From Paramecium tetraurelia (taxonomy: Eukaryota): 64,000 bases of DNA. Positions 1 to 63,302 of this stretch are shown here, one piece after another. Under the pieces are notes generated by a model, which saw only the letters and a list, made by a program, of their open reading frames with translations, was not told where the DNA came from and did not search any database. The number at the start of each line of letters is the position of its first letter. Position 1 is the stretch's first letter. The position numbers and the translations under genes are program-made. Location of the stretch: NCBI GenBank assembly GCA_000165425.1, contig CT868185.1, forward strand, positions 434,001-498,000. The letters run 5' to 3'.

Positions 1-3000
1 CACTAAAGATATTCCATCTGGGCAAAATTGAATTACGAGGGAGTAAGTATATTCATATTCAATTTCCAAAACTCTCTCTTCATTCTTGTTTATGTTCCAT
101 AATATTATTTAATTCTTACTATATATTTGATTAATAGCTAAGGTATTATTATCCTAAGACACTAAAATAATATTCCTTTCCGGCTTATATTAATCAAGGA
201 TCTTTATTCCCGATCCATTTATCTCATCTAAAATCCTTATTTTCTAATCATTAGTCTAAATAATTAATAATGAGCCATCAGGAGAATAAATGATGTATTC
301 TATTTGAATGCCCTCATCTATGTCATTGAATTTCTCACACTCATAAGGAGCTTTGCTAATATTCCAAAAATATAAACTTCCGTCTTCAAATACTGTAGAT
401 AGTATAGGCTTGCAAGGGGAAAATGCCATTGAACAAACACTATTTCTATTTTTAATTTAATTATCCATCAATTTTAGTTCTTTAAAATCATATAAAGATA
501 TTTATTTGGAATACTTGTCTATCGAAGCCAATATTTAATAATTAGCTTAAAATGAAAAATATTTTATTGATGAATAGCAAAAATTGTTATATTCTTCTGA
601 TTCTTGAAATTATTGGCCATCTTTATCATAAATAATAATTTCATCTTGACATTTTTCAAATATAAAATCCTGATAATAAAATGAATTTTGTTCGCTTTTA
701 CTAAGAACTACTTCCTAGAAAGTATTTAAATCTAAAAATCTTTAATTATATTCTCCTATTATTAATCTCTATTCATTACTAGTAATATCAATTTAGGTAA
801 TTTCTTAATCAAAATATATACTATTAATAATTGCTTCAGTATTAAGATCTAATATTAATAGTGTTTAATCTTAAACAATAACAGCAAAATTAGAATTAGG
901 GAATAAGTAAACAGGATAGGAATACTATATATTAGCAAAATAGGCAGAATCATCATACTAAAATTCTCCATAGGCTAAATAGTTTTCTGATCCAATGACT
1001 ATTTCTCTTTCATTGGGTAAGGTTAAATATTAGATTTAATATTCTTTAAACGATAAAACTTAGCATTTACATTTATCTTTCAAATCCCATAATAATAGTA
1101 AATTTGTACATGCAGATACTAATCTATTTCCTGCCTTACTAAAAGCTAAGGCTGAAATCTTTCCAGTATGACCAACTAAGATCTTTTCATTCCTAGTTTT
1201 TACTTCAAATAATTTAATAGTAGAGTCTGCTAAGCCTAAAGCAATCAATTAATCATCTTATGTCGAAGTGTAAACCAAGATTTCTTATTGACACTAAAAT
1301 ATAATATCATTTGGTTTTTCTGTGATAAATTCAAAATTGCAAATTATCAAAATTCCTGAACTATCAACTGAAACTATTTTTTTTCCATCTAAAGTGAATT
1401 TGACTCCTGTGACTGGATGATCGTGATAATCTATTGTAGATATCAAAGACTTAATTTATGGATTCTAAATATCCCATAATTTTATAGTTTTATCTTTACT
1501 ACCAGAAGCTAGAGTTTTATTATCAGCTGAAAAAGCAACTGATAATATTTAATCTTGATGACCATCAAATTGTTATATTAATTTATAATCTTCCACATCC
1601 CAAAGACTTAATAGATTTCCTATTCCATTTGATGCAATTAATTTGCCATTTGAAGAAAATTCAACTAGTCTAACTGGTTCATCTTCTTTTAAAAATGGTT
1701 TTTCTTTACATCTAACATCTTTCCATTCAACATCTGTTAAATTAGCATAATTAAAATTACAAGAATTAATATTAATATTGGTAAATTTAGATTTACTTAG
1801 ATCTGCATTACAAAAACTTAAACCTGAGATGTTAGTATCAATTAACTAAATTTCTGAAAAATTTTCATATCCTAAATAAACATCCAATTAAGATAATAAG
1901 AAAATACTATTTGAAGCAGCATAAATATATTAATTATTTTTTGATAATTTAACAATATTAATAAGAACTCTTTTTATATTATCTAGACTACTTATTTTAT
2001 CTTTAATAAAAGTTAATACTCCTTTAAAATGATCCTTTGAAATATTTAATGCAGGTTTATTATATAATGATTCCATCAATCTGGTAATATATTTCTAATC
2101 CAAATTGTTTTCATTCAAAAATTAAGAGCCAACTTAAAGCAATAAATCTATTATAAATTTAGCAACATAAAATTCTTAAATAGATTTGTGAGTAAATGAA
2201 TAGTTACTTCCTTTAGCATTTAAGAGAATACAACTTCTTATTAATTTATTATAATCAAGTTCCTATTATGAATCATTAAAATAATCATCAAACCAATCAT
2301 CATCATTATATTACTTGATATATTTATTTTTTAAATTCAATTTTCCTTTTTATTAATATGTGATTTAAGATAATTAATTTTTAGTCATATCTATTGCTAA
2401 ATTAGATGAAAATTCTAATATATCTATTTAAAAACTTTCCCAATTTGAAATTTTACCTGTCTCTCTCAACTTTTGAATTTATTANNNNNNNNNNNNNNNN
2501 NNNNNNNNNNNNNNNNNNNNNNNNNNNNNNNNNNNNNNNNNNNNNNNNNNNNNNNNNNNNNNNNNNNNNNNNNNNNNNNNNNNNNNNNNNNNNNNNNNNN
2601 NNNNNNNNNNNNNNNNNNNNNNNNNNNNNNNNNNNNNNNNNNNNNNNNNNNNNNNNNNNNNNNNNNNNNNNNNNNNNNNNNNNNNNNNNNNNNNNNNNNN
2701 NNNNNNNNNNNNNNNNNNNNNNNNNNNNNNNNNNNNNNNNNNNNNNNNNNNNNNNNNNNNNNNNNNNNNNNNNNNNNNNNNNNNNNNNNNNNNNNNNNNN
2801 NNNNNNNNNNNNNNNNNNNNNNNNNNNNNNNNNNNNNNNNNNNNNNNNNNNNNNNNNNNNNNNNNNNNNNNNNNNNNNNNNNNNNNNNAACCTTACTATT
2901 GCTTTGCCATATTAGGTAATACTTAGACAATAATTTCAAACATGAAGGGAGTTGATAATAAATCAGAAATACCTACGTTTTCAATGGCCTTTTCAAATTT

Positions 3001-6000
3001 ATAAACACTCCATAAGGATGCCAAATCTTTCCTGAGGCCTGTAATCTATTCCTCTTTTAAATAATTAAATGGAGAATGCTATAAAATTTTGTTAATTAAT
3101 TCTTCCCTCTAGGAACTTTCAAAAATTGATTCTGATTATTCTTTATATGAATTTTAAATCCTGTTTTAAACTTCTACATTAACATAGTACCATATTTTTA
3201 AAAATTCATCTAAATTAAAATTTTATTATGCAATCTATTTCAAGAAATCATAAACTGCTCTTATTTTTCTCTTTACACTAAGTTCGACATATTGAATTAA
3301 ATAATTACTTTTTTAAACTTCATCGAAATCCTAGATCTATACTTCTTTTAAATTCTTTATGCTATTTCCATAGAACCAAGTTTAATAACCCAAAGTGTTT
3401 AATATTTCTCTTCTGGTTGTGATGATTATCTTGACTTATTTTTAATTTTCATCAATATTCAAATCATTAATTAACTTATTTGTTATAACCAGATTTTATT
3501 AGATGCAATCCTATTTCATTTCATCATAACTATCAAGTATTAAAATGATATATTCTTTTTTATTTTAAATCGCATCTTTAAATTCTCTAAGTTAATATTT
3601 ATCAAATTAATAATTCTCAGATTCTAAAGCTTATTCAAATATATTATATTTTGGATTTTTTAAGGTTGGAAGTGATACAAAGATAGGAATCCATTTAGAA
3701 TTAATTTCTTTTTATTTCCATAGAAATTCTTCAATTTTTCTGGCTGCTTTACTTTTACCAGAACCAGCATTTCCTGAAAGTAACATAACATCATTTGATT
3801 TAGATTCATCCCAAATAAATTCATTAACTTCTCCTGTGAAATCATTCCATTATTCACTCATTAAATTGGTAATTATTACTCCATCTTTGGATTTAATACT
3901 TGCTCCAGTAACAGGATCATATTCAATAGTTTTTAATTATACATATACAGAATCTACTTCTGCTAATCTAGATTATAATAATATCTTTTATTTTCTTATT
4001 TCTAATAATTCATCATATCTTTTTCCTCTTAATTTACGAATATCATCCCCAACTTAATTTAAACTCTCTTATAAATTATCAATCTAACTTTTTATTTACT
4101 TCACATCTTTTGAGATATCCTTTAAAAATATTAAACTTATATCCATTTTCTCCGACATTTCAGTAATATTATCATTATATTGTTCAAGTTCTTCATAAGC
4201 TAGCTTTAGTTATTATTTAAGTTGCTCTTTAATTTATGAATTTCCTTCAAGTCTTATTTCTTATGAAATGCTTTCTATGCTGTTGATTCTTAATTTTATT
4301 TCTTATTTTATTTACTCTGATGTAGATTTGATATCCTAAGAAAAAAAAAGTTTTTACATTTCAATTAATTCCTTATTTTTCAATAGATTTCTGACTCTTT
4401 AATCTTTTTCAAAAACCCAAAGGTATTGAATCAGTTTTGATGAAAACTCTACCATTTTGTCTTCTTTAATTCCTTACTATAACTTTATTAAATTAAAAGC
4501 TAAGCATTCTCTAATTTTATAATCATTGCTTAAATCAAATACATCAAATATCGACTTTTTTATTTTTACTTATTCGCATAGGTTATTGATTATATTTAAG
4601 TATAAAGGGTCTAAATTTTGAGGTATTTTATCCGAACTTTATTATTTTAATTCAAAGAAAGCTAAAGTTTCTTATAAAGTTGATTCAACTTACTCAATTT
4701 ATTAATCATTTCCTTTTTCAATTTAATGATTTTATTAATCATCCTCTTGTTTACTTTAAATGATACATTTGCAACTCTCTCTCTCTTCTTAACTTTATCC
4801 CTTTAAATTTTCAATAAAATTAATAATTGAAGTTTTAATTTAAAATTTGGATTCTACTTGTTACATTTATGTATTGCAGTTATTGACATGAACTTAAATT
4901 TCTTCATTATCTGGTTATTAAAGTTAATTTATAATTAACATTAATAATTGTTCTAATAATTTCAGTAATTTATTAGTATCCTTTATCATTTTCAAATCTT
5001 TATCAACACAAAAATGACAGAAATCTAAATGCTTATTCTTTCTGATCCAATTTTAGAAAGTCAATTTTTTGACATCTGCCAGACTATTATCAAACTCTCC
5101 TTAATTATTTTGAATTTCTCTTATAACATTATCATATTTTTCCATTTAATTGTTTAAAGCCTCAAAGTCATAATATTCATTCTAATTTTATAAAACGATA
5201 AATTGAGCTTTTTGCATGAATTTAATAACTTTTGATTTTATTGTTTTGGTTTATTAGCCTCTAATATTTTCTTTTTCATATTGGATCATCTAATAATCCG
5301 TTTTTATTTATTAAAGGAGTTATTTTTTTTTTTCTTTAATCTTATTACTTCCTTTATCCAGGTCTTTTGATTTCAAAATATATTCTAATTTTTCCTTTTA
5401 TTATGTTAACTACTTGATAAGCATTTATTTAAAGTCTTAATAAATCTTCTATTACTCTTGAATGGCTAAACGTTTTTCCTCATCTAGGTTTTAGTCAAAT
5501 GTGCTAATTTTGTATTAGTGGATTTAGCAAAATTGTTTCATTAGTTTTAACATTTAAAGGCTAAAAGTACAATTTCTATAAATTTTTTCAATATCATCTT
5601 TATTTGCAACTTAACTTTGACCCAAATCAAATCTATCCGAAAAATTAGTAACTAATTATTACCATATTATTTTAATCCATTAACCTGAACATATAGTATT
5701 TGACATAGCTTATATTTATAAAGGAGGAAAATTGATATTGTAATCATGTGTTTTAATACTTGATGCTGAGAAACAAAATTTTTGTTAAAATTCCTTTATA
5801 TTTATTATGCATTATTATAATATTAATGATTTTTTGGAATTATATTAAGAACTCAGGTGATTTTGAATCAAAAATTTGGAATTTACATCATCTAGAACCT
5901 ACTTTTTTGATATTGGATTTAAACTAATTTCAGACAGATAACTCAAATACTCTACCACTTTTAGAAAATTTTAGACAAAATCTTCCAAGATGACTTAAAA

Positions 6001-7421
6001 TTTAACCTTAATAAATTCTTCAATACTCTAAAAAATCTTCTTTAATTTTTCTTAAACTTCAGACTTTAATTTTTCAAAACAAGGAAAAAGCAATTTTAAT
6101 TTTTCAAATTCAATAGTAGATCTTTCTATGATAAAAAGTAGATAATAAAAGGCCTATCTATATTCATCTAAAAATTATTATCTAAAAACGATATAATCAT
6201 CTTAGAGTAATTTGATTTAAAGCTATGTATTATCCTATTAAGTAAAATAATCTGTAAATGATTCTTAAATTTATTAGTAAAGGAGAACTAATTCATCTAA
6301 CTAAGAATTAAATCTTTCAATTTACTTTTCTATAAATAATAAATCATTATTTTGTAAAACTATTTCATAATCCTTTATAATAGTTTCTTGCTTTTTTTTA
6401 AAGCTAAAATTTTTATAGAAATTCCAAAGATGAATTTCTTTTGAAAATTATCCTTTTAAAAGAGACTCTGAAATTAATTTAAACTTGGGAATACTCTATT
6501 TTTCCATTAAGTTGTTTATTTCTTTGCTAAAATATTTTACTTGATTTTGAAATAACACTGCAGACCCTTAATTTCTATTCTATGGAAGACTAAGAATTAA
6601 GTTATTTTCAATTAAATTATTCCACATTGATTATTATTCTATTGGAGAACCTTTAACAATTTCAAATTTATCGAGAATGGGTCTATATGCTAAAATATCC
6701 ATTATCATTGATATCCAACTAAAATGAATGATCCAATTATCTGAATTTAGAATATATTATTAAAATGCATCTTTTAGTTATTTCAATTAATTATAGACTG
6801 AGTACTAAGATTTTAATTGCCTCACGATAGTCCATTTAAGAGTTTGGAATAAATAATAAGTAGCATATACCTCTTCAGGATATAATACTTTGTCTTTATA
6901 TTGTAAAAATAAAAATTTAGCTCCTTCAATAAGACTTGGGATTAAGTCTTCAGTAGGTGACATTGCCAAAGCTGACTAAGCTACATTTTTAACAATATTT
7001 ATTAATAAATTTTTTCCTTCTTCTGAATTGGTTTGACAATTCATCAACATTATTTTCATAAGAGTTATTTCATATTCTATTCCTGTATTCCATACATTTG
7101 CTTATTCAATGCTCAATTACCCTTTAAATTCCTCTACATCTTGTAATAATTCTTATTGCATAGTTAATTCCATTTTTCGATCCTCATTCTGTATTTAAAA
7201 TGAATATATAATTCTCAAAAAATCATTACAAATTTAAAGAACTTAATAACATAAAAACCATGAAGATCTTAAATAAATGGGAAGAATTTTTAGCAATTCC
7301 CTAAAAGAATTCAAAGATTTTGTATATATTGATTAAGTTAAATTTTGGTTAACGCAACAAGTATTTAAATGTCCTCTATTATACATAAACCATTAAAATG
7401 CAATTATTACTTCATTTCTTT
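1..7421 (-). CDS. Giant NACHT-pentapeptide-WD40 (NLR-like STAND) protein, paralogue A1; partial (start lies in N-gap, 3' end beyond window)
   Basis: With TAA/TAG=Gln it reads [24 protein letters not shown] (Walker A, ~3750-3790), [13 protein letters not shown] (NACHT-type Walker B, ~3515-3555) and [11 protein letters not shown]. Pentapeptide repeats [33 protein letters not shown] follow (~1740-1840), then WD40 repeats ([32 protein letters not shown]). Same frame at checkpoints 1248, 3759 and 7392. Confidence 0.9.
2485..2888. other. Assembly gap (N run) inside A1
   Basis: N run whose flanks align to about 17990-18410 in A2. Confidence 0.98.
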
Positions 7422-7571: not shown

Positions 7572-9225
7572 TTATTTAGTTCCAGCTATTCATACACGAA
7601 TTTTATTAAACAATTATTTTTAGCGTCAATAGAGTATAAATAAACAGAGGATCCGAATGACCTGCCACAAAATTAATTCCTTATGGAACAATCTTAAGAA
7701 TTTTTACTTCATAGTTTATTTTATAATTCAAGCAAATTTATTTAAACTTTTCTACTTTCCATACAGTAATTGAACTTATGAAATCTACTTAATTTTAATA
7801 TTCCTGTTATTAGAAAATCCCCTTTTGGTGAAAAGCAATAGAACTAATATAATTTTTAATTCTTTAACAGTCTAAAATTGAACAAGATCTTTCTAGTCTT
7901 GAAAAAAGCAAAATTTACAAACTGGTTGAACACATCTAGGACAAATATTTTGATTTTATGAAAATTCAGATAGAAAATATATTTTGATTACAAATTAAAT
8001 TATTAGACAAAAATTAACCAAATATTAAGTTGCTATCATTTGAATATCTAACCTTAATTTATTTATCGTTTAATTATGTGCATTTTTTCTAATGGTAATT
8101 TAATATTCACGATTTATATGATGTTTACTTGCTTGAAGCAAATAATTACCATATCCTAAAGAAAACGGTTTACATTTTGAATTATAAACTGCTTTAGATA
8201 AATTTTCTACAAACTTAACTTATCAATATTATTAAATATATCTTTATTTAATTGAAGTTATCTTTAAATTAAATTAATAAGTTATTAAAGAAGATAGCCA
8301 TATCGATTATTTAGGTTATAAATTCATTTCTTAATTTTTACTATTTTTCTATTTTATTGATTCTTAAAAACTATAGTTTATTCCTATTTGCAATAACTAA
8401 TATTTCCGATGATTAAAATTAAATGATTTCTCCAGTAAAATCTTCAAAGTTATGAATGATTTAAAGATTTTATAACTCCAAAATTTGCAATGAAGGAGTC
8501 AAGCTTGCCAAATATTTACTATCTGGTGAAAAGCAAGTACAATTTTAATTTTCTATACCCTATAACTCATTTTTATGAATTGTTGGATACACCTTTAAGA
8601 CTTATACCTAATTACTAAGTTTTAGAGCAATTTCTTACTTCCTAGAATTAAAGGCACAGCTCAGAATTACAGATTGTATTTGAGAGTTTAAGTTATTTGG
8701 TAATTAACTATTTAATCAATATCATGGATAATTATGCTATTTACAAAAGTTATTTTAGAATAAACTCACAATACATTCTAACATCCAAGAATTCTCTAAT
8801 TAGTACATGGAAAAATAGCAATTACTATCATGTGAAAACTATATAAATAAAACATTATAGAAATTTAAACATTTAAAACCTAAATCATATACACTAATTT
8901 CTCTTAAAAACCTTTGTTCCTTTTCTAATAGCAAAACAACCATATCTTCATTTTGAGAACAAAAAATTAGAGAAAATGCTTCTCTAAAAGACAAAGAGAA
9001 TTTTCTTTTTTTTGAAAATTCCATAAGTATATTTGATTAACATAGAATAAGAATTTAAGGTTGATGGAAAATTGAAAAAAAATCAATTTTATTTGTTTCA
9101 GGACGAGTCAATACAGTTTTATGCAATTGTGTCGCTATATTTTATTTTTGAACTGATCCGTCAGTGTATAAAGTAAATATTCTATTTGAATCTTAATCAG
9201 AAAGAAATATATTTTTATTTGTTAT
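7572..9225 (-). pseudogene. Relic 1 of the 3' (WD40) end of NACHT-WD40 paralogue B
   Basis: Aligns by eye to about 38870-40540 (shared CTCFSPDSKYLASLTPSLQILEL block at 8480-8545 vs 39840-39905). Has indels and a 95-bp frame-breaking insert, and lacks the 5' portion. Confidence 0.85.
8677..8773. mobile_element. 95-bp TA-bounded insert, IES-like, retained in relic 1
   Basis: gattgTA-tttgagag...ctcacaa-TAcattc here versus gattgTAcattcc (single TA at 40039-40040) in intact B. Confidence 0.65.
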
Positions 9226-9229
9226 CGAA

Positions 9230-9850
9230 AACTTCTACTCTTCATACTCCTTATATATTATTCTCTATGATTCAGCAATCCTTTATATTATGTTAATTTA
9301 AAATTTAGACGAATTAGATCTGAAATTTTCTCAAAGACAAAATTAGCTACATTATGTAGAGTAAGCATTTTATAAGTGGATTATTTAATGTTTGATGATT
9401 GCATGCTTATTTGAATCAATAAAATTATTGAAAAGCATCCCTTATATAAATATTGATTTTGGTTGTAAAAAATAAATTCATTGATTAGATAACATTTAAT
9501 TTCCTGAATTAACAAGAATAATATGATTTTTAGTAAAGTATCAAAATTTGTTGAACATGAAGTGGAATCACTAATGAAATACAATAACAATTCTTTTAAA
9601 TAATTGAGATATCAACCATTTCCTTATATAGTATTTTCTATTGGGAAAGAAAGTATAATAATGTTCAGTCTATGATAGCCATTCAAGAAATTTGATTAAA
9701 TAAACAATTACAATTGTTTATTCATAGAGAAAGTATTAATCCAATTTAAAATTAGAGGCATCATCATAAGTAAATTAATCTGTAATAGATGATTTATTAA
9801 ATATAAACAACCAAAATTACAAATTATATTAAGTTTCAATCATTTTTATG
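9230..9850. pseudogene. Degenerate duplicate of the unidentified segment at 51700-52500
   Basis: Shares blocks such as ttctctatgattc, tgaagtggaatca and atcatcataagta.attaatctgtaatagatgatttattaaa with 51720-52470. No intact ORF recognised. Confidence 0.55.
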
Positions 9851-10810: not shown

Positions 10811-10815
10811 CTATA

Positions 10816-23225: not shown

Positions 23226-23487
23226 GATACTTTTGAAATATTTATTTAAATAATAGAAAGAGTTTCGTTTTTATTTGTATTTGAATATAATATAATAGAT
23301 ATATTTTCCTAGATTTATTGTATAAGTTTATTAATGTTTGTCCTAACATTGGAAAAATAATTTAAATTAATATCTATTTTACAAATGAAATAAATTATAT
23401 ATATAAACAAGACATAAAAATAATTAACCAGATTAAAAACTGTCTTTAAAAACGAATTAATTTAATACTGAATATTTTTTTATATAT

Positions 23488-24875: not shown

Positions 24876-24929
24876 TAATATATTTATAGTAAAAAATAAT
24901 ATATCTTATTATTATATTATGAATTATAT

Positions 24930-37900: not shown

Positions 37901-38400
37901 TTACAAATTTAAAGAACTTAATAACATAAAAACCATGAAGATCTTAAATAAATGGGAAGAATTTTTAGCAATTCCCTAAAAGAATTCAAAGATTTTGTAT
38001 ATATTGATTAAGTTAAATTTTGGTTAACGCAACAAGTATTTAAATGTTCTCTATTATACATAAACCATTAAAATGCAATTATTACTTCATTTCTTTGTTA
38101 AGGATCAATTAAAAGTGAAGCTTTATTATTGATAATGCTAACATAATTTTCAAGTTTAACCAATAAATCATTGGGTACACCAATAATTAACTTTTCTTCA
38201 ACTTTTGAAATTGGTTTAGCTTATCCACAGCCTCCCCCTCTTAATTGAATTTCAAATTATTATATTGTTACATTATCATGAGTTTCAATTAGTTAATAAA
38301 ATTATGAGTTTTGTGGTTATGATTTCAAAATATTAGAAACAGGGCAATTATTTTAGCTATCCTTATAAATTTACAAGTTTGGATCGAATACGTTATTCAT
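25974..38400 (-). CDS. Giant NACHT-pentapeptide-WD40 protein, paralogue A3 (~4140 aa after correcting three apparent frameshifts; possibly a pseudogene or consensus errors)
   Basis: Begins [20 protein letters not shown]...[15 protein letters not shown] at ATG 38400 and ends LFRQKGARE-TGA (25974-25976). Extra bases relative to paralogues: +1 at ~37690, +1 at ~34890, +2 at ~34455-34463. 12427-4=12423 nt is a multiple of 3. Confidence 0.8.
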
Positions 38401-38730: not shown

Positions 38731-41700
38731 TCATTAACAAGCTCCTTTTTAGAGAAACAATTCTATAATAGATTTATTTTCTGAGTTTATGCTTGACTTT
38801 GATAAAATGGACTATTGAGCAGTCAATAAGGATTATTTGGCAAACGATTTATAACAAAATATTTATAATTTAGTGATATCCTCGTTTAATTTCAACTATT
38901 CAAAACACTACTTTTTAACAAAATTTGTTTAATTAGCATCAATAGAATATAAATTAACTGAGCCATCCGAAAGACCTGCTACAAAATTAATTCCGTCTGG
39001 ACAAAACTTAAGAATTTTTACTTCATCGTTTATTTTATCATTCAAGCAAATTTATTAAGATTGCTAGACTTTCCATAGCGCAATTGAATTTATGAAATCT
39101 ACTTAATTTTAACCTCCCGTTAATAGAAAATCGCCTTTTGGAGATAAAGCAATAGAGCTTATATAATTTTTCTCTCCTTTGATAGTCCAAAATTGAACAA
39201 GATCTTTTTAGTCATAAAAAGCATAAATTTACACGCTTGTTGAACACATCAAGCCTAAAAATTTTTGATTTAATGAAAATTCAGATTGGCTGACTTGAAA
39301 ATCTAATTTGATTTCTTTAACTTTTTTGAAACTTATAGAATCAAAAAGTTAAATTGTTTAGTCAAAAATAACGACTATCAAGTTGCCATCATTTGAATAG
39401 AATATCTAACCTTAATTTATTTACCTGTTTAATTATATGCATTTTTCTTATTTGATATTTTTAATATTCATTATTTCAATGATATTTTCATTGCTTAATG
39501 CAAAATAATTACCATTTCCTGAGAAAAATGGTTTACCTTTTGAATTATAAACTGCTTTAGATAAATTTTCTACAAACTTATCAATATTATTAAATACAAC
39601 TTTTATTTTATTGAAATCATCTTTAACTTAAATTAATAAATTATTAGAGTAGATAGCCATATCAATTATTTTGTTATAAAATTTAATTTCTTTAATTTTT
39701 ACAATTTTCTCTATTTTATTGATTCTTAAAAACTAAAGTTTATTCCTATTTGCAATAACTAATATTTCCGATGATTAAAATTAAATGATTTCTCCAGTAA
39801 AATCTTCAAAGTTATGAATCATTTAAAGATTTTATAACTCCAAAATTTGCAATGAAGGAGTCAAGCTTGCCAAATATTTACTATCTGGTGAAAAGCAAGT
39901 ACAATTTTAATTTTCTATACCCTATAACTCATTTTTATGAATAGTTGGATACAGCTTTAAGACATATACCTAATTACTAAGTTTTAGAGCAATTTCTTAT
40001 TTCCTAGAATTAAAGGCACAGCTAAGAATTAAAGATTGTACATTCCAACATCCAAGAATTCTACTTGTTAATGTTTCCTCTAATTAGTAAAGGTATATTG
40101 TGCAATCATGGCAAAATAGCAATTACTTATCATCATGTGAAAACTATATGAACGAAACATTATATAAATTTAAATCATCAAAAACGTTGATCATAGACAC
40201 TTATTTTCCCTTAAAAACCTTTACTCCTTTTCTAATAGCAACAGCAATTATATTTTCATTTTCAGAACAAGCAATTAGAGAAAATTCTTCTTCAATAGAC
40301 AAAGAGGAACTTTCATTTGCTTGAAAATTCCATAATTCTAATTGTGAGTTTGACTAACTCTAAAACATTAAGAATTTAAGATTGATAGAAAATAGAACAA
40401 GATCAATTTTAACTGTTTCAGGAAGAGTCACTATAGTTTTATGTAATTGGGTTGTGACATTCCATTCTCGAACTGATCCATCAGTATATAAAGCCAATAT
40501 CCTATTTGAATCTTAAGCAGAAAATTAATATATTTTTAATTTATTATCTTTAACCTCTAGTTATTTCTTAATAGCTGGATTATTAATTTCCCATAAAGTA
40601 ATGACATTATCGTATTTTTCTTTACTTATTTGTTGAATATCTTAATAACATGCTAAATATTTATTATCCCTAGATATTTATGGGGATTTAAAATTTTATG
40701 ATCCTTTGAATTCATATATGCATTACCAATTAATTGTGTCAAATATTTAAACTTCTTAAGATTTTAATATTGCTGTTTGAGCTAAGTCAATCGAAAAAGC
40801 AATCTCTCGTTATTCAGATGAGTCAAATTTTTAGTTTGTCTTCTATTCAACACTTTGAAGCTTTGAAAAATCATGAAGCAATGTTCTAAAATTGTTTGAA
40901 ACAGCATCCGAAAATAGTGGTTGTTCTTAAGTAGTACAATCTTTAGCTTAAAATAAAAATTAATTATTTGGAGATAGTAAAATATATTTTGATTCTGACA
41001 AATAAACCCATTTTTTGAACCAATTATTATCCTTGTCTTTTGACCAAATATATAATAATCCTTAGCCTTCCAAACATAAGATTAAACGACCATCTTGTGA
41101 AGGTATTATTTAAGTAACTTTTGAATTTTATTCTAACACTTATTTTTTTTTAGTTTCTACATTTAAGATTGTCATCTAATCCTTATTTTACTAAATATAA
41201 ATAAATTCATTTTATTAATAAAAACAATATTACTTTAAATTAGTATTTAAAATTATAGGCTTGTCTTTTTCATATTGCCCAATTTACTTGAAATTCCATT
41301 GTTATAGGTTATCAACTTTAGAGAAAGAGGCAAACAATTATTCTTTTGGTGAAAAACTAAGGGAATTTATAGGAAAGTTGAACTCATCTATGATGTAAAG
41401 CATTTTGGTTGCTTATGGATATTCAATATTCCAAAAGATTATTGTTCCATCAATGCACCCTGAAATCAAATATCTTGAGCAATAAGAGAATTACAAGGAG
41501 GTAATAGAATCCTTATGTCCTTTTAATTACGTTATAAGCCTCTTCTCCTTAAGATCCCACATTATAATAGGCACTTCAGCATCTCCGCCTTTTATGCTAC
41601 CCGAAGCTAATAAAAAACCGTCTTGAGAAATAGCGAGTGCACTTATCGAATATTAATGGGCTATTTAAGCTTCCGAGGACTCATTTTACTTTATATTCCA

Positions 41701-44700
41701 AAGCCTAATTAGTTTGTCATCACTTGCTGAAGCTAGAATACTACCGTCCTATGAGACTGAGATGGCATTTATTTTTTTTTAATGTCCTTTCAGAGTTCCA
41801 ACAATCTTTTTTGCTTTTACATCCCAAAACATAATATTATTCTCTTCTGTACTTATTGCTAACCATTCTTAATAAGGCAGATATGTCATGCAATTGATGT
41901 CTTTCTTAGTTGTTCCAATCAGAGTTTTAGAAGATTATGATGTTGAGAATAGCATGATTTAGTTTTTATTATTAACAAACACAAATGAATCTTTTCCAAC
42001 TGCTTTCAAATAAGATCTAGAGAATCCTTCAATCTTTAAATTTTCTATTTATTTTATTACAAAATTGTTATTCTCCAAAATAGACATTTACACATAATCA
42101 TTAACAAAGCAAATTAATTCTTCATCAAAGCTTAATTAGAAACAATTGTAATATAATTTACTCCTTATCAATACAATTTATTTTGACTTTTAGGTGTCAA
42201 TAATTCGAAATGTTTTTTTCTCCTGATCTAAAATGGCTAGAAGTAATTATTTGTTAGATACTCCCTATCTTTAAAATATTTAAGCTTATTTTATATAAGG
42301 ATCTTTAATTGCATAATTCTTCTCTAACTGATATTGCATTCCTTTGCATATAATTTTTTGATTTTTTGTAATTGAAAATATTCTAATCATATAATATGAG
42401 CTTAACGAGAAATCATACCCACTGTTTGTAAATTTAATAAAGCAATCAGAAATTTTATTCTATAAATCAAAAGTGTCAATAATATTTAAGCTACCATTAG
42501 AGTATTCAATCAATAAAATTTTTGATTCTGCTTACACAATAATAAAATTGTTTTCTTAGCATAATGCTACAGCATTGACGTCTCCATTAAATGGAACCAT
42601 TTCTTTAGTATCTAATTATAATAGAGAGAGCTTTCTTGAATAGGATAAAATAATAAGGAATTACGATTTAATGGACATGAGCAATTGTTTAATGTACTGA
42701 TCTTAATTGATTGGAAATGCAAATAAAATATTGAATATATCTTTGATATTAATATACTGTCCATCTTTAATCCCTGCTCCAAGTTATTCATCTTCTTAAA
42801 TAGAGAATGAACTAATTCCTTCATGATAGCCGCAAAGTTTAATGTTGTGTAGATCACTGAGTTTCCATATTCTTACATAGTTTTCACCTTACAAAATTAA
42901 TATTTCATTCTATAAATACAATTAAGGCATAGCCTTTTCATTAATCTTTATTCCAGATATCTATTATCCTTTTTCACAATCCCAAATTTTAATCATTTAA
43001 TCATCACATTACAATAAAACATTTTATTTAGCATTGAGAAATTTTAAAGATTTTGTATTTTAGCTTACTTTAAAAGAAAAATTGCATTCTTCGAATTCAT
43101 TGCTAAATATATTTACCTCTAGGTTTTATGATAAAGCAATCATATCATTGGAAGATATTGCACCACAATCAAATTTCTATTCAAATGTTTATTCCAATTA
43201 AAAGCAATCTAAATTACAAACCAATAATTCTGAATTTGCATTTAACATAATAATTTGTTTATCATCATTAATAAAACTAAACTACTTAATTGGAAATTCA
43301 AACACTTAAGATCCAATAAACTTTAATGTAATATCAGAACGTTTCCATAATTCTACAACATTCCTTTGAAATAAAGCAACTAAATCAGTATTCTCAGAAA
43401 AAGTTATCTATTCAAAATCTTTTAAATAAGTGTTCTTTTTTTCAATTATCTAAAAAGTATTTAGATCCCATAAAATAAGTTCGCCAGGACTTCCAGAGAT
43501 TATAGATTTTTAATCATGAGTGAACATGAATTTGATTTTATCGTTCCTATGACCTTTTAACAATGTTTATCCATAATTCTGATTTTTGTTTTAAACGACA
43601 ATATTTTGATTATGATTGAGGCAAAACCCTATAAAATTATTATCTTATGAAAATGAGACGTATGCTTCTTCTTTAGATTCTTCAACTCTTAGTAGATTAT
43701 GTTCTACATCATAGATTTTGAACTAACTTTGAAATACCAACACAAATTATGAGCCATCTCTGGAATAATTTATGGATTTAATTATTAAATCACCAAAATT
43801 AATTCTTTTTTACACATTAAAAGGTTTAGAGTCTAAATTCCAAAATAGTAATTCATCTTAATATCCAACGGCAAGTTCATTTTTAGTTGATGAAAACTAA
43901 ACAGCCTTCACTTCTTTCTTTTGGTTTTCGAGTGATTCTTGAATTTATTAATTTTTATCCAAATCATAAATTTTAATAGACTAGTTCTCTGATGTAACGT
44001 AAGCTACAATCCAACTTTATGGTTTAACATAAAAGTGATCAACACTTAAACTAAATTTTCTAATCTCTAATTCCTTCTGAATTTTCTATGTATTTAATTT
44101 TAGTATTCTTTAGAAACTAGGCTTTAACTTTTAATCCTATTTAAGATTATTTATTAAAACCTTTGAACTGTTGTCATATGAAATATATAATTTTTCAAAA
44201 TTATTTGATAATATGTAACTAATCCAATAATTTGAATCCCAAAAGATTAAACATATCGTTTTAAGAGTTGAAACTTCCAAAATAATGAATTATTTGACTA
44301 CTTATTCAGCTTTTAAGAAAAAAGCCAATTTAAAGCCATCTTTAGAAAATTGTAACTGATTTGGTTGAAGATCAAAATTAATTGAATTAACCTATGATCC
44401 TGAAGTTGGTTCAATTATATTTAGTTTCTTTTCATAAACCACTGCAGCTATATTACCTTAAGGCGATAGTTAAATTTCAAAACATTAATCCTTTTCTATT
44501 TAACTTTAATTCTCATTCTAGATTAGTTCTCTTGAAAACAAAAATTCTTGTGCCCCAAAAATTATTTATTTATTATCTTATCCAAATATAATTGAATATA
44601 CTTTAATATTTTAATTGAAGTTAATTATTATTAATTCTTTTTTAGTATTCTCTTATATATTCCAAACAATTGCTTTACTACTAGTAGTTATTGCAAAATA

Positions 44701-47700
44701 AATCCCATCATGACTAAATGTAAAATCCATTATTCTAATCTAATTTGAATCAATAACAGGTTCAAGCGACGTTTAATCATTCGTTATGTAGTTAATTAAA
44801 TCAACTTATTTGTTTTGTTTTATAACTGCAACCATTGGTTCAGTTGGATGCAATGCAAATTATGTGATTAACGCATTATTGAGATTGAAAATACATTCTT
44901 CACTTTGACCATCCTTTAATAAATCTAAGATTTGGAAATTTCCATCTCCATCTTAAGAATATAACCTTTTTGAATCCTGAGAAATTTATACTTTTATGAC
45001 TTTGTTTTTCATTTCATCCACAATTTCACTTTTTAGAGGATTCTTTATATTCCATTTTCTAATAGTGCGGTCATCACTTCCTGAAAATAGTATTGAAGAA
45101 TCTGATGAAAAATATAGAGTATTAATTTTGGCTGTATGTCCTTCTAAGTCTTAAATAAATCGATAAGTTTCTGCATTCCATAATTTAATTTGATTTTCTG
45201 TACCTACTGATGCGATATACTACCCATCAGGAGAAAATTGAACTTCTAAAACTCCACTATTATAGCCTTTTAAAAAGGGTTTTTCTTTACAAATTACATT
45301 TAACCATTATGCGTTTGACAAGTTAGCAAAATTTAGATTGCATGAATTAATTTCAACATTTTTAAATATCGATTAACTTAAATCACAATCGAATAAACTT
45401 AGCCCAGAAATGTTTGTATTTTCCAATTCGATTCTGTTAAAATCTTGTGATCCCAAATAGACATTCATTTAACTTAATAAATACATGCTATTTGATGCTG
45501 CTCTACAATAAACTTTATTCCTAGAAAGTTTTACTATTTCAATCAATTATAAGTTCATGTTTTGAACATTGATTAATTTTTCTTTAATAAAATTGATTAC
45601 ACCCCTAAAGTTATCTGTGGAAATGTTGAATAAAGGATCATTAAAAACAGATTTAATCAAAATCTTTTGATTTTTAGATAATTCAACTTTCCTTTCTTCT
45701 TAGATATTAACATCAAAATTATCCAAAGATGTTAAAAGATCAAAAATATACTTTGCAACATAGAACTCTTAAATTGATTTGTGTGTAAATGAAAATGTAG
45801 TTCCTTTAGCACTTAATAAGATGCAACTTCGAATTAATTTCTTATAATCATCTTCCATATCAAAATATTAATTCAACCAATCATCAATAACTTATTCAAT
45901 TTTATAATTACTTTTTAGATCAAGCCTACCTTGTGGTTTATAACCAATTTATGATAACTCTCTCAAAGTCATATCAATGGCTAACGAATAAGAGAATTGA
46001 AAAATGTCACATGAGAAACTCTCGTAATTTGATACTTTACCAAGTTCTCTTTGTTTTTGAATTTACTGCTCATGATAAAAATTAATAAAACCTTCATAAA
46101 ATTCAAATACTGTGAATTTTTTCATTTTTAAAGCGATTATCACAGAATTAGTAACTTCAGAGCTTAATTTTACTGTATTACCATCAAAAACAATATTATC
46201 TGCATCACGATGTAATGTGCTAACTATTGAGTAGTTTTGAAAAAACTTCTGATTTTCTAATTTATCAACAATTTCATCTACTTTTGCTCTCTAAATTTTT
46301 AATTCAAGCTCTTCATCTTTCTCCTTTTCAGAAGTTTATTCATCATCAAGTTTTGATATGTCTTTTTGTTCATTTCCAACAGAAGGTTAATTCTCTTTTC
46401 TATAAAATTCTTGTGCATTTTATGACAGTTTTATTTATTTTTATAAATTCATAAAATTTTTAATAAAAATATCTTTTATCTAAGTAGACCCTGAATATCT
46501 TTTTGCCATATTAGGCAAAACCTAAACAATAATTTCTAGCATAAATGGAGTAGTCAATAAATCTTGGATCTTGATACTTTCAATAGCTGTTCTAAATTTA
46601 TTAGCACTCCATAAAGCTAATAATTCTTTTCGTAATCCTGTTGTTTATTCTTCTTTCAAAATTTCTAAGCTTTTATGAGTTTTTAGCCTATCAATAACTA
46701 CATCTTCTTCCTTATTTTGAAATATTCTATCTTAATTTCTAGAAAAAGATTTATTAATGCAAACAATCACTTATTAAGAAATCAAACCCCAAATAGTTAG
46801 AAACTCTTTCAAATCAAAGGACTATCCAGAAATTGATTTTACAAACTCATAAACTTCTTTTATTTTCCTTTTAACACTCAATTCAACATATTAATTTAGA
46901 TATTCCATTTGTTGCTACTCATTAAAATTTTATAACTAAACTTCCTTCAACTTTATTAGACTTTCTCCGTAAAACCATGTTTAATATCCCGAGACATTCA
47001 GTATTTCTTTTCTTGTTGTGATTATTACTTTCATTTACCTATTTACTTTATCAATATTTAATTCTTAAATCAATTTATTTGTCATAATTAGATTTTATTA
47101 GATACAATCTTATTTCATTTCATCATAACTATCAAGTATTAAAATGATAAATTCTTTTTTATTTTAAATCGCATCTTTAAATTCTCTAAGTTAATATTTA
47201 TCAAATTAATAATTATCAGATTCTAATGCTTATTCAAATAAATTATATTTTGGATTTTTTAAAGTTGGAAGTGATACAAAGATTGGAATCCATTTCGAAT
47301 TAATTTCTCTTTATTTCCATAGAAATTCTTCAATTTTTCTAGCTGCTTTACTTTTACCAGAACCAGCATTTCCTGAAAGTAACATAACATCATTTGATTT
47401 AGATTCATCCCAAATAAATTCATTGACTTCACCTGTGAAATCATTCCATTATTCACTCATTAAATTGGTTATTGTTATTCCATCTTTGGATTTAATAATT
47501 TCCCCAGTAACAGGATCATATTCAATGGTTTTCAATTAAACATATACAGAATCTACTTCTGCTAATCTAGATTATAATAATATCTTTTATTTTCTTATTT
47601 CTAATAATTCATCATATCTTTTTCCTCTTAATTTTCGAATATCATCCCCAACTTAATTTAAACTCTCTTATAAATTATCAATTTAATTTTTTATTTACTT

Positions 47701-50700
47701 CACATCTTTTGATATATCCTTTAAAAATAATAAACTAATATCCATAGCATCAGATAATTCTGAAATGTTATCTAAAGATTCGTCTAGCTCTTCATATTAT
47801 TATTTTAATTTTAATTGAAGTTTTTCTCTTTTTTAAGAATTTCCTTCAAGTTTAATTTACTGTTGTAGGTTTTCAAGCTTTTACATTCTTTCTTTCAATT
47901 CATCTTTCAAAGAACCTGATAAATTATCTAAGTCTTATGAAAATAATTATTTTTAAATTTAAACTAGTTCTTTGTTTTTCAATAAATTTCTAACTTTTTA
48001 GTCTTTTTCAAATACCCACATATGCTATATCTATTTAGTTGAGAACGAGCTTATCTATTATTCTTGAATGCTTTATTATAGTCTTATTAAATTGTATACT
48101 AACCCCTCTCTGACCTTATTGTCAAGATTAAATTTAATTGAATCAAATATCTTTTCCTTGATTTCATCATATGTATTTTTCATCTCTTGCCATATACAAG
48201 CATTTACTTCATCAGGTTTTAACCCTTTTGAGTATTCTTAATTGGATTTCAAATTGAAAAATGCCAAAAACTCAGATAATTTTAGATTCACGATTAATCG
48301 CCATTCAATTTATTGATTTTCAATTGAAAATTTAGCATTCAATTAATTAATTTATGATATAACTTTTAAGTTAAAAAACTTTTCGCTCTTTTCCTTTAGA
48401 TTATTTATTGATGCATTAATGTTTTGTTATTCTTAATTTTATAATTGAACAAGTTGATCTTTCAGTTTATTTTACTCCTCATTTGATTGCTCTTATAATA
48501 TGATTTATTGGATTTTTGTTTGTTTCTGTTTCTAAATTTGTTTCTATTGATGAATTAAGCTTAGTCCAAGTTATAATAATTTTTTATAAGATTTAAAATA
48601 ATTATTACTTTGCTTAATAAGTGTTAACATCTATTCGTTGTGATTATTTATTTAGGCAAAAAATTATAGAGATTCATCTCTCTACTCATAGACTTCCAAT
48701 TTTTTTTCATTATTATTATTATTAAAATTATTGACAGCATCTAAAACTTGATCATACTTTGTTTAAAGATTTTCTAAAGTCGATAGTTCTTCAGGATCTT
48801 TTTAAACTTAAAGGATAAGAAATTATGCTTCTGCCAAAAATTTTAATATTTAATCGCATAATTCTAAATTTTGTTAACTTTAGAATTCATTTATAATTTA
48901 GTCAAAATCAGCTTAAATTTAAGCCACCAAATTTTTACAACTTACTTTAAAATTTTAATCCTCACCTTCTTCAGTGTTTGCATTGACAAATGTTGATAAT
49001 TTTGATTTTTATTACACCAAAATCTAAGCAATATTGGTTTTAAAATTTTAGTCTTCCTATTCATTTGATGATTCAGATTGCCTGGTGAAATCTTAAAGTT
49101 AGGACCTTATGCTCTTTAAATAATGTTTTTGTACATTTAAGAATTACTTTAAGAATGATAAAATTATTATACAGAATTTGCAGTTAATGAAAACTTATTA
49201 GGCATTTTCTAGAGTAATGAATTGTTGATTGAATAAGTTAAATTTTGAATCGAAAACATTTTTTAGTCTTCCAATTACTTTATTGATCCATTATCCTTTG
49301 CAATTGTATTCAATTATTTCCCAAATATTGGTAACTTATAATGGTATGGCTTTTTCAATTTTCTCTTCTTTTGAAAGATATTTAGAAAAATGTTGTTTAA
49401 AGAAGTTCAAGCTCAAAGTAAATTGCACAAAGTTTTTATCAAAAGTGAAAAAGAAATCTTAAAAATAATTAATTTCAAATAAGTTCATTATTTTATCCAA
49501 ATCTACTTCATTTTTCATTGCTAAAAATAAGCTTGCTTCATATATTTAACTTGCAAATTCAATGACATTAAAGAATAAATTTAATAATTAGTCAATAAAT
49601 TCAATTAAATAAATTTTCACAAAATCATTAATTTTTGCTTAATAATCTAATAAAACAGATTTATTTTTTTAAATTGTGATTTAATTTAGATAAGGGGTAA
49701 GCATATTTATTTTAGCAGCTTCAAATAATGATAATTCAAGAATATAATTTGATAATAGAATCAATTTTTTATAGATTTCTAAAAATTATTTTAAAGATAC
49801 TTTTTAATCATCCTAAATGATTTAAATTGAAATATAAGAGTCCTATTTAAAATAGTTTTGAAAGGATTGTATTATTTGTTGATTTACTGAGATTAATTCA
49901 TCCTTTTAAGACTTCAGATTATTAAATAATTTTTAAAGTACCTCTTATTCATAATTTGCTAATATGATTTCATAGTCTTATTATGATTTCTTACTTTAGT
50001 TTTTGAACTAAAAATTTTTATAAAACTCCCAATGATTAATATTATGAGTAAGTTCTCCTTTCAATAGAAATTAAGAAAATAATAAAAACTTTTTCTTCCC
50101 ATATAACTCCAATAAATCTGTTGCTTCGAAGTCATGAACTTAACTAGATTAATTTTAAAAGAATGTTATAATAGCTTGATTCTTATCGTAAGAAACACAA
50201 TGTATTAAATCGTTTTCAATAAGAAGATTCCATTTATTTAATGATTAATTTTTTTGCTTTTTCAAAATAATAGACTTATCGATAATAGGCCGATAAGCAA
50301 TTATATCAAAAATCATTTAAATCCAACAAAAATGCAAGATCCAATTATTAGAAGTTAGTATATATTATTAAAAAACATCTTTTAGTTATTATATTTATTT
50401 GTAGACTGATTACTTTGATTTTAATTGTCTTATTATTGACCATTTTATTAATTAAAATAAGTAATATGTTTAATAGGTTTCTTTAGGGTACATAGTTTAT
50501 TCAATTCCTTTATTTAAAAGATATCGACCTCCATTAACGATAGTGGAAAGTAGATCTTCTGTTGGAGAGAAGGACACAATTGATTTACCTGCTTCCTTAA
50601 AAAAGTCAATTAATAAATCAGTTCCTTCAGTTGAATTAGTTTATGAGTTCATTATCATAATTTTCATTATTGTTACTTCAAATTCGATCCCGGTCTTCCA

Positions 50701-51366
50701 AACATTTGCTTATTCAATTTCTAATTGAGTGTTGAATTCTGATAACTTCTATAAGTAATCCTATTATACTGAAGCTTCAAAATATCTTTTAGGATTGTTT
50801 AATTAGAATGCATACATAATCCTTAATAATTCATTACAAATTTATAAAATTTAATAGCAAATAAATCCAGAAATTCTTAGGTAAGTTGCAAGCACTGTCA
50901 AAATATTATCAAAATTTTCTTAAACTAACTCATAAATTTTGTCAGTTTCTTTTTGATCTATACAAAAATAATTCAAATGTTCTCTGTTATGAATAAACCA
51001 TTACACTTTCATTAATAATTCATTTCTTTTGGTAGGGTCTCCTATAAATTTAGCTCCTTCTACTATTATGGTAAGGGTGTCACTCAGATTTGTTCTATAG
51101 TTGTCAGGTAACGATGATGAAATCATTAAATTTTAGTCTGCCTTTACTTTCTTATCAATCACACAATCTACTTTTGATTATCCGCATCCTCCACCTCTTA
51201 AATTAATCGTATTCTTGTAGTAGATTTGCTTTTAAGAATTTTGACTATCGATATATGATACATGTATTAGAAAGTCTTATAAAGCTTAGAATAGTATTTC
51301 AATCATTTCTGTATGTATTTCTCTATTTTAAGTTACCATTAATTCATTCATCAATGTGGCTAACAT
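38731..51366 (-). CDS. Giant NACHT-pentapeptide-WD40 protein, diverged paralogue B (~4211 aa)
   Basis: 12636 nt, same frame at start, LRGGGCGQSK (51172-51201), Walker A (~47350-47375), pentapeptides (~45300-45430), WD40s (SVSQDGSILASASDDKLIRLW at ~41700-41760) and the end SIIELFLQKGACQ-TGA. Frame spot-checked, not codon by codon. Alternative in-frame ATGs at 51351, 51339 and 51306. Confidence 0.88.
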
Positions 51367-54377: not shown

Positions 54378-54389
54378 TTAATAAAATAA

Positions 54390-59716: not shown

Positions 59717-59785
59717 ATATAAATAATTTTTTATTAAACGATGTAGTATTCTAAAATGAATTGATTATATATAAATAAAAATAAA

Positions 59786-63258: not shown

Positions 63259-63302
63259 TTGTAAAGTGATAACAATTAGTCTTTTTATTAATATATAAAA
63301 TA

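Follow-up and report, generated by a model that had tools for sequence, protein, structure and literature searches.

Four giant gene copies and two remnants

As the window, a 64,000-nucleotide stretch of a Paramecium tetraurelia contig, was translated with the ciliate code (code 6), it was found that four paralogous units, A to D, lie on the minus strand and are open only under this code. With translation table 11, only three ORFs of at least 150 amino acids appear, the longest of 203, as a first-pass annotation of this DNA had remarked in calling the standard-code ORFs small fragments. The four minus-strand units that it described are real, each with a NACHT domain, a pentapeptide stretch, and about 2,100 amino acids of WD40-type sequence. 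The check that it had proposed, retranslation with code 6 and HMM searches, gave open units with matches to NACHT, pentapeptide, and WD40 profiles. Its count of four genes of more than 4,000 amino acids holds for D, a single ORF of 4,235 amino acids, while C and B are frameshifted and A runs past the window edge. At this locus of the Paramecium aurelia complex lie members of a family of giant STAND NTPases that appears restricted to the genus, and the architecture and the locus history described here are very probably correct. An Rfam search and a tRNA scan gave no matches.

The intact D-type gene, gene D, lies at 38731..51438 on the minus strand. Its public model starts at M25 (position 51366) and has 4,211 amino acids and no introns. 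D is 90% identical over 4,216 amino acids to P0003 of P. octaurelia. Domain by domain, the identity with the P. octaurelia orthologue is evenly high (87-96%), and change has been fastest in the repeat and linker regions. One contig of run X17, which was only presumed to be an RNA run, covers 38714-39359, beginning 17 nucleotides past the stop codon of D, and on this contig D may be transcribed. The same run has no cover over 19500-38700, where genes B and C lie, which says nothing about their silence. Judged by its sequence, D is the only clearly functional gene at the locus. An LRR-repeat gene lies upstream of D (52907..53914, minus strand), and about 420 nucleotides of its 3′ end are within a duplicated unit.

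Two decayed 3′ ends of D-type genes, which were absent from the first reading, lie between the copies. The remnant f1 (23395..24730, minus strand) is 84% identical in nucleotides to 38633-40040 and has its own stop codon about 265 nucleotides ahead of the ATG of gene B. The remnant f2 (7575..9237, minus strand) has in-frame TGAs and is followed, at 9253-10333, by copies of the upstream spacer of D and of an LRR-gene fragment. A copy of the 3′ part of the LRR gene with its flank (24885..25488, minus strand; 83% to 52699-53327) shows where repeat unit 2 begins. In a blastn comparison of the spacers and in a repeat search, periods of 15.15-15.52 kb and 27.8 kb were found. Evidently, the locus is a 27.8-kb unit, made up of an LRR-gene 3′ piece, a D-type gene, and a C-type gene, that was tandemly triplicated. 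Units 2 and 3 have since lost their D-type copies through deletions of 11-12.6 kb, whose break points differ between the two. A, B, and C group with P0015 apart from the P. octaurelia copies, which points to recent amplification or homogenisation. Birth-and-death evolution, as proposed in the first-pass annotation, is borne out: a segment was triplicated, large deletions followed, frameshifts are private to single copies, the copies group by species, and gene conversion is indicated.

Assembled contigs from three studies cover 30 of 30 bins, in a stretch that takes in four of the five frameshift sites described below (all but 14838). They bridge the junction between the end of D and the start of C (38180-38936, with no differences) and the junction between f1 and B (23026-24119), while the contig joints 20459/23410 and 27901/38597, with sides of 21 nucleotides, were disregarded. 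The sequencing evidence at the locus consists of contigs only, and expression level and rare variants lie outside their reach.

Decay and conversion among the copies

Gene C (25974..38400, minus strand; C-type) has 4,129 alignable codons without a TGA and three private insertions (+1 at 37710, +1 at 34891, and +2 at 34463, just 5′ of Walker A). Gene B (10816..23225, minus strand; C-type) has two private insertions (+1 at 20055 and +1 at 14838) and otherwise no TGA in 4,129 codons. Gene A (1..7419, minus strand; C-type) is an open frame with NACHT and pentapeptide parts that is truncated at the window edge, which it leaves at about codon 2,470. Its 5′ end abuts f2, with no room for the first 95-100 or so family codons and the spacer. 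In all, there are five internal frameshifts, each confined to one copy, and eight of the 15 indels between B and C are multiples of three. As read from the assembled sequence, B and C are decayed by private frameshifts. Three of the four copies look damaged, and the locus may thus be in decay rather than diversifying. The first-pass annotation had called it a diversifying receptor cluster, a reading that found no support: Ka/Ks between B and C is 0.42 overall, the identity of D and its orthologue is even, and there are no conserved internal repeats of the HET-E type. In windows with measurable divergence, Ka/Ks between B and C is 0.13-0.65, and the windows gave no signal of positive selection; one 300-codon window (codons 300-600) comes near 1 (0.95), with a dS of only 0.012.

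It is distinctly unlikely that B and C are intact and that the five frameshifts are consensus errors that arose where the assembly met repeated sequence. In favour of such errors, 1-nucleotide changes of run length account for four of the five. With the frameshift columns removed, neither gene has a TGA in 4,129 codons, whereas neutral evolution would have given about 26 in each lineage; however, by my own estimate, recent decay likewise predicts about zero or one stop codon for two or three frameshifts. The only contig at 34458-34463 in three runs lacks the 2 nucleotides and preserves the frame, but it has 4x depth, matches the paralogues, and probably comes from them. At 37710, 34891, and 20055, no indel row was found in three runs covering those bins, which speaks weakly against assembly errors. 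In addition, the public model P0019 spans the insertions of C by "introns" of 22, 22, and 32 nucleotides (37667-37646, 35037-35016, and 34455-34424), which fall exactly at the frameshift sites, although the model may stem from the same assembly. P0019 is to be flagged, as it hides three frameshifts behind improbable introns, the third of which (32 nucleotides) takes out the P-loop.

Could these short introns be real and restore the frame, so that C is expressed as a P-loop-less protein like P0019, possibly a decoy or regulator? This is highly improbable. The segment 35037-35016 has the ends GTA...TAG, which are typical of Paramecium introns, but it is one of three; the remaining two end in GTT...CAG and GTC...AAG. 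Furthermore, all three bridging segments coincide with coding sequence in B, A, and D, and about 45 codons stay outside the ancestral frame after the first bridge. Recent decay by frameshifts is the preferred reading of B and C.

A tract of about 650 nucleotides (47077..47724 in D, minus strand), which covers the pre-NACHT helix and the P-loop core, is 90-100% identical in nucleotides among A, B, C, and D, whereas its flanks are 55-75% identical and its borders are sharp. In the repeat search, the tract emerged as a family of four copies at 96%, and it is also found as a 4x-depth contig. The sharply bounded near-identity against diverged flanks indicates that gene conversion keeps the P-loop core nearly identical in all four copies. 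It is an unusual pattern that the homogenised part is the NTPase core rather than the repeats.

Domain architecture

The domain order is an alpha-solenoid, a long helical region, a NACHT NOD, about ten pentapeptide turns, and about 2,100 amino acids of WD40 propellers. Ahead of Walker A, about 1,300 amino acids were found, in agreement with the N-terminal region of about 1,200 amino acids proposed before. The N-terminal alpha-solenoid domain of D (50287..51129, minus strand; model residues ~80-360, counted from M25) is all-helical in a model with a pLDDT of 80-94 in the solenoid part and a pTM of 0.70. The modelled domain is a generic alpha-solenoid without a recognisable effector. The 1,250 N-terminal residues have no recognised enzymatic domain and no known effector, death-fold, TIR, or HET domain; with Pfam searched at E up to 1, the sole match was DUF1930, whose 17.7 bits fall short of the cutoff of 27. 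When the N-terminal model was compared by Foldseek, nothing reached E ≤ 1e-3; the best match was MO25 at 0.07, and the HEAT/ARM-like matches are generic. In a wide VIA-align comparison of the same model, the best match had a Z of 12.4 (rmsd 3.0, 144 aligned), whereas unrelated helical repeats typically reach ~13. Atlas scores were at most 0.84 for the N-terminal 460 amino acids and 0.88-0.90 for the 261 amino acids preceding NACHT, the latter including bacterial NNH1/NNH3 clusters as a lead only. A search for the N-terminal domain in shorter proteins gave six matches, namely four Paramecium fragments and two pieces of 65 amino acids. A nearly invariant LRGGGCG motif lies within a flexible N-terminal loop and might be a candidate processing or lipidation site controlling activation.

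The NACHT NTPase domain of D (46882..47391, minus strand; residues ~1350-1519) matches PF05729 with 52.3 bits over profile positions 1-165 of 167. The other units have the domain as well, with 49.3 (A), 45.1 (B), and 42.3 bits (C) against the cutoff of 26.7. PF05729 is the best-scoring NTPase model in four of four copies, and the NTPase groups with NACHT; NB-ARC reached only 14.4 bits, in A. The NACHT motifs are a Walker A of the form GxxGxGK[ST] and a Walker B followed by the acidic residues D-x-x-D-E. As the first-pass annotation had read, an intact Walker A (GNAGSGKS; at 3774 in A, 19294 in B, 34451 in C, and 47373 in D) and an intact Walker B (LDSYDE) each occur once per unit in all four units, the latter always in the context ILILDSYDE. 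Both motifs are nearly invariant in 42 aligned rows (41 database family members and the D fragment of the window). In NODs of the STAND/NLR type, helical and winged-helix domains with a conserved His motif come after the NBD. In the Paramecium family, FTHKSIQEFYVAKY is present, and its F, H, K, S, Q, E, V, and A hardly vary among the members. The F-x-H-x-S-x-Q-E-F motif here, which was aligned with FMHRSLLEY of a fungal NACHT protein, is presumably the counterpart of the WHD histidine of NLRs. The profile matches and motifs support the assignment of the family to the STAND NTPases of the NACHT type. In the PDB, the NOD as a single query had no matches by sequence, and a NACHT-only family profile had three matches at E up to 1, the best (SRP54, 0.065) not being significant. 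Solved NLRs were matched neither by the single sequence nor by the family profile.

Between the NOD and the WD40 region of D, there is a pentapeptide-repeat stretch of about ten pentads (45295..45444, minus strand). The pentapeptide repeats reported in the first pass, about 50 amino acids after the NOD, are confirmed by PF00805 in A (26.4 bits), B (22.4), and C (24.3), but the match in D (16.3) is below the cutoff of 20.2 bits. PF13599 gave 25.6-31.1 bits in all four copies, under its cutoff of 38.

The WD40/beta-propeller region of D was delimited by profile matches (38950..45288, minus strand; residues ~2051-4163). Its proposed extent of about 2,000 amino acids agrees with the finding that six of six slices of about 360 amino acids (D 2040-4235) match beta-propeller models (E 5e-44 to 2.5e-7), and PF00400 gave 194.2 bits against a cutoff of 27. 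The proposed 45-50 blades were not recovered: 20-27 were recognised by home-made blade HMMs, while the length gives room for about 48. The blades are diverged and not internally homogenised. Tandem Repeats Finder gave three short arrays in 1-52000 (periods 29-33), none in register with the WD40 units.

Relatives and candidate function

The family has 51 relatives of 2,329-7,412 amino acids, and all the named ones come from five Paramecium species. Nine of 20 representatives looked up are from Paramecium, including the strongest checked matches, and one is from P. bursaria. The family appears to be confined to Paramecium, with many paralogues per species. No NCBIfam family was matched by D, no PADLOC family was matched by the N-terminus and NOD, and literature searches turned up no paper on Paramecium NACHT-WD40 genes. 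To my knowledge, STAND/NLR-type receptors have been described from animals, plants, fungi, and bacteria, and hardly any from ciliates.

Among the nearest named relatives of the NOD outside Paramecium are ARM-like-repeat/NACHT/WD40 proteins of Mortierellomycota (hypothetical proteins of Modicella reniformis and Linnemannia elongata) and NACHT-ankyrin proteins of Cymbomonas. A Mortierellomycota protein matches collinearly between the NBD (E 9e-17) and the region around the FxHxS..E motif (E 9e-5), along a shared path of Walker A, "SLP.L..P", D-x-Y-D-E, "NL..TN.L", "PFML", and F-x-H-x-S, and the order of alpha-solenoid, NACHT, and WD40 is the same. In contrast, the N-terminal solenoids are unlike in sequence (best E 0.55 against a fungal ARM_5 protein), no pentapeptide is among the Pfam matches listed for the fungal proteins, and these have 1,600-2,600 amino acids against 4,200 in Paramecium.

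Fungal NWD proteins are NACHT-WD40 non-self sensors with family turnover, gene conversion, and highly similar tandem WD40 units. The likeness to HET-D, HET-E, and HET-R drawn in the first-pass annotation was found to be partial. NACHT followed by WD40 and a multigene family with birth-and-death turnover and gene conversion are common to both, whereas the Paramecium N-terminus lacks HET and any other above-cutoff Pfam domain (E up to 1), and its WD repeats are diverged, unlike the nearly identical units of the fungal proteins. The conversion in Paramecium, moreover, acts on the P-loop core and not on the repeats.

Animal NLRs and bacterial proteins of the bNACHT/Avs type likewise have a NACHT NOD, a C-terminal repeat sensor, and an N-terminal module, but the Paramecium family is without an LRR, death-fold, TIR, or nuclease effector, without a PADLOC match, and without a sequence match to solved NLRs. 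Bacterial NACHT architectures include pentapeptide and beta-propeller sensors, according to a preprint (bioRxiv 10.1101/2022.07.19.500537). Like TEP1, NWD1, and Apaf-1, the family has several WD40 propellers behind a P-loop STAND module, and propeller models of TEP1 match the Paramecium repeat region. However, it lacks TROVE or CARD, its best NTPase model is NACHT and not NB-ARC, and its repeat region is about three times longer than two propellers.

The best explanation as a whole, that of a giant STAND family at a triplicated and then decayed locus with D as a switch, has a probability of roughly 60%. D would be a STAND switch whose closed, ADP-bound NACHT is held by the WD40 region and the pentapeptide linker. 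A ligand on the propellers would cause nucleotide exchange and oligomerisation, and the latter would cluster the N-terminal solenoids into a platform for partners.

A somewhat unlikely alternative is a housekeeping scaffold or a regulatory STAND protein without an immune role (like TEP1, NWD1, or ciliary NPHP3), with ordinary, redundant tandem copies in the process of loss. The N-terminal domain is a generic alpha-solenoid, a kind of fold common in scaffolds, and there is a weak match to NPHP3_N (23 bits against a cutoff of 24.8). Purifying selection dominates, D and its 1:1 orthologue are evenly conserved, and no defence family was matched. On the other hand, the family was found in no genus but Paramecium, where a species has many paralogues, the tandem amplification is species-specific, the repeat and linker regions evolve fastest, and the turnover is high, although all of these points are still compatible with a scaffold role. 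In that case, the locus would be an ordinary lineage-specific expansion.

If D is a switch, its ligand may, by analogy, be a microbial or non-self cue, which would make D an NLR-like sensor; I regard this as a tentative possibility. A wider proposal is more doubtful, namely that Paramecium has an NLR-like repertoire of its own. Its giant NACHT proteins would use six or seven propellers to detect bacteria inside the cell, killer particles, viruses, or foreign cytoplasm, and the family-specific solenoid would recruit a ciliate-specific response, with LRGGGCG as a possible processing or lipidation site. Segments of such a repertoire would be duplicated or deleted and genes would decay by frameshifts as it evolves, while conversion would protect the P-loop switch as the sensor parts drift. 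Ciliates harbour numerous endosymbionts and killer bacteria, and RNAi feeding makes Paramecium easy to manipulate. The locus supplies one intact gene of 4,200 amino acids with clear orthologues, together with a natural series of recently broken copies.

One intact giant gene and its damaged paralogues

The cluster is AT-rich (GC about 0.19-0.28), and the window can be read only if TAA and TAG encode glutamine. With translation table 11, three ORFs of at least 150 aa were found, the longest being 203 aa; thus, as the first-pass annotation stated, the standard code shows only small fragments. With code 6, the minus strand has a single 4,235-aa ORF, gene D (38731-51438), plus several ORFs of 900-2,800 aa. 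A tblastn search of the window with D revealed three further collinear paralogous units, C (25974-38400), B (10816-23225), and A (1-7419), and two pieces, f1 and f2, matching the D C-terminus only. The locus comprises one intact giant gene and several paralogues that are damaged or truncated. The first-pass annotation had listed four genes of more than 4,000 aa; the observation of four paralogous units was real, but it was overstated since only D is intact.

The D product is a 4,211-aa model in the database, and D is 90% identical to a 4,216-aa P. octaurelia protein. These proteins are labelled only "NACHT domain-containing protein", and a full-text literature search found no publications on these Paramecium NACHT-WD40 genes. 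The D coding region (38731-51366, 12.6 kb) is one open frame, intronless in the public model, which is unusual among the intron-rich Paramecium genes.

Indels were counted after aligning the C, B, and A sequences as DNA. Fifteen events separate B and C; eight are multiples of three, and two (11 and 1 nt, both inside the first 32 nt) offset each other. That leaves five frameshifts, none shared between copies: 37710 (+1), 34891 (+1), and 34463 (+2) in C, and 20055 (+1) and 14838 (+1) in B, all on the minus strand. All but one of these frameshifts are 1-nt changes in run length, and A, where present, matches the unshifted copy. When the frameshift columns are removed, B and C each have 4,129 codons without any TGA, while about 26 stops per gene would be expected under neutrality since the B/C split (852-866 codons one step from TGA, per-lineage dS of 0.09). 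It follows that the breaks are either very recent or errors of the assembly. Contigs from three independent runs span the stretch, and none has an indel at 37710, 34891, or 20055. At 34458-34463, the only contig present lacks the two bases, but it settles nothing on the +2 insertion because it has a 4x local depth and paralogue sequence.

P0019, the 4,104-aa public P. tetraurelia model of gene C (mapping at 99.6-99.96%), keeps C open via three "introns" at or near the three frameshifts: 37667-37646 (22 nt), 35037-35016 (22 nt), and 34455-34424 (32 nt), on the minus strand. Two of them have non-canonical ends, and all fall where the paralogues have coding sequence. P0019 has no NACHT match because the third "intron" deletes the P-loop.

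Gene A has an open frame between 7419 and the window edge. It has runs of N at 2485-2888 (404 bases, as many as B and C have there, and thus length-preserving) and at its 5' edge (7422-7571, 150 bases). The latter hides the junction with f2, which at 7575 stands 151 nt short of its stop. From f2 to A codon 96-103 or so there are about 155 bases, of which 150 are masked; the corresponding points in unit 2 lie about 700 nt apart. Thus, gene A seems to have lost the spacer and its first 100 or so codons. The cluster probably extends past base 1 of the window. P0015, a further P. tetraurelia C-type copy outside the window, is a 2,646-aa model that is 88.6% identical to the visible 3' part of gene A; the recorded length of its contig equals that for the D and C models.

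Domain architecture and relatives

The NACHT profile PF05729 scored 42.3-52.3 bits (cutoff of 26.7 bits) in all four units, matching 165 of its 167 positions in D, and GNAGSGKS and ILILDSYDE were found in every unit. Other NTPase models were weaker (nSTAND3, 22.8-26.3; NB-ARC, 14.4). The NACHT nucleotide-binding/oligomerisation part (NOD) also has IITTR, TPFMLEIIV, and FTHKSIQEFYVAKY; the last, presumably the winged-helix histidine motif of NLR-type NACHT domains, is nearly invariant across the family. The earlier NACHT/STAND assignment is thereby upheld by the profile and both Walker motifs, and membership in this switch-type NTPase class is supported at the sequence level. From the family, one may reasonably infer a sensor mechanism; a role in immunity is hypothetical, proposed by analogy.

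No Pfam domain was found in the roughly 1,300 residues ahead of the P-loop. For the N-terminal 460 residues, AlphaFold (alignment of 20 rows, mean pLDDT 74.4, pTM 0.70) gave a confident all-helical solenoid at residues 90-360 or so and a low-confidence loop at residues 34-77. Fold searches with this model gave generic HEAT/ARM-like repeats only (best Foldseek E of 0.07), and the best VIA Z of 12.4 is within helical-repeat noise. The N-terminal domain was seen in this family only. At 55-60 residues from the N-terminus (around 51190-51210 in D, 38241 in C, and 23087 in B), a poorly conserved loop with low model confidence holds an LRGGGCG motif that is nearly invariant. The motif looks like an LRGG-type cleavage site with a G-C-G-x-S acylation-like motif after it, a comparison that is purely speculative.

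About ten pentapeptide units lie downstream of the NOD (PF00805 passes in A, B, and C, while D falls short of the cutoff); retranslation and HMM searches recovered the giant ORF and the NACHT, pentapeptide, and WD40 parts described earlier. The last 2,100 or so residues are WD40-like along their whole length (PF00400, 194 bits), and six of six slices of about 360 aa match propeller models. The 45-50 blades proposed earlier are permitted by the length, but a blade HMM trained on D recognises 27 at i-E ≤0.01 (24 at <1e-3; best match in the non-repeat part, 1.3e-3) and a family-trained HMM 20.

With the NOD as query, phmmer matched 794 of 1.84 billion representatives at E ≤1e-3, 41 of them at ≤1e-30. 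Of 20 representatives looked up, Paramecium accounts for nine, one of them from P. bursaria (29% identity); Cymbomonas, a green alga, for two (NACHT-ankyrin); and Mortierellomycota fungi for two. One more is a EukProt entry. The Mortierellomycota proteins share the order of ARM-like solenoid, NACHT, and WD40 with a collinear NOD; their solenoid has no detectable similarity to that of Paramecium.

Locus history and gene conversion

The genes flanking the cluster (52907-63998) are ordinary: an LRR protein gene (52907-53914, minus), a Helicase_C_2 (helicase C-terminal domain) protein gene (57241-59157, plus), a gene for a WD40 protein unrelated to the cluster (60457-63255, plus), and a kinase fragment (63306-63998, minus). 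Blastn of the spacers revealed that f1 (23395-24730) and f2 (7575-9237) are copies of the last 1.3-1.7 kb of D, with 84% and 80-84% identity. Beside them are copies of sequence from upstream of D, including pseudogenised LRR-gene 3' fragments (24885-25488 and 9836-10333, minus strand, matching 52699-53328), which mark the starts of units 2 and 3. In the repeat search, start-to-start spacings for A, B, and C were 15.15-15.52 kb, and the LRR fragment gave 27.8 kb. The spacer matches and spacings define an ancestral unit, 53328-25489, consisting of the LRR-gene 3' piece, a D-type gene, a C-type gene, and a 488-nt flank. This unit occurs three times. The D-type gene is deleted from units 2 and 3 with differing break points (equivalents of 40100-52698 and 40560-51715).

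In a quick LG+G4 tree built on 45 rows of the NOD remainder, D pairs with its P. octaurelia orthologue P0003 (support 100). Two P. octaurelia copies share a clade with A, B, C, and P0015, and the copies inside it group by species, which fits either post-speciation amplification or within-species homogenisation. Birth-and-death evolution, as claimed in the first-pass annotation, is well supported, together with gene conversion, by the repeated units, D-type deletions, private frameshifts, grouping of copies by species, and converted tracts.

Overall Ka/Ks between B and C is 0.42. Across 300-codon windows, dS ranges from 0.01 to 0.42, and dS between B and A is 0 at codons 900-1200; such a mosaic is what conversion typically leaves among tandem copies. 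Synonymous sites are saturated in comparisons of D with the C-type genes (pS 0.4-0.9); the exception is D codons 1306-1425, with a pS of 0. At the nucleotide level, a conversion tract of about 650 nt (D 47724-47077; also 3785-4084, 19305-19604, and 34464-34763; minus strand) has 90-100% nucleotide identity between D and A, B, and C. It covers the pre-NACHT helix and Walker A/B and matches without a single difference over 294 nt between D and B and over 226 nt between D and C. On both sides, identity falls to 55-75% inside a single 50-nt window. The 4x-depth read contig is consistent with several identical copies of the P-loop core. Tandem Repeats Finder detected no WD-unit arrays in the cluster. 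The sharply bounded identical core and this lack of arrays show that conversion homogenises the NTPase switch core, not the repeats.

Across species, the nucleotide-binding domain is the most conserved part (78-96% identity between D and six relatives), and the helical linker and WD region are the least (37-91%); D and its closest orthologue share 87-96% in every domain. In f2, a 300-nt patch (8344-8643) is 98% identical to D 39706-40005, compared with about 80-84% in the rest of f2, and f1 holds a 115-aa patch at 91% identity. These, too, are patches of conversion.
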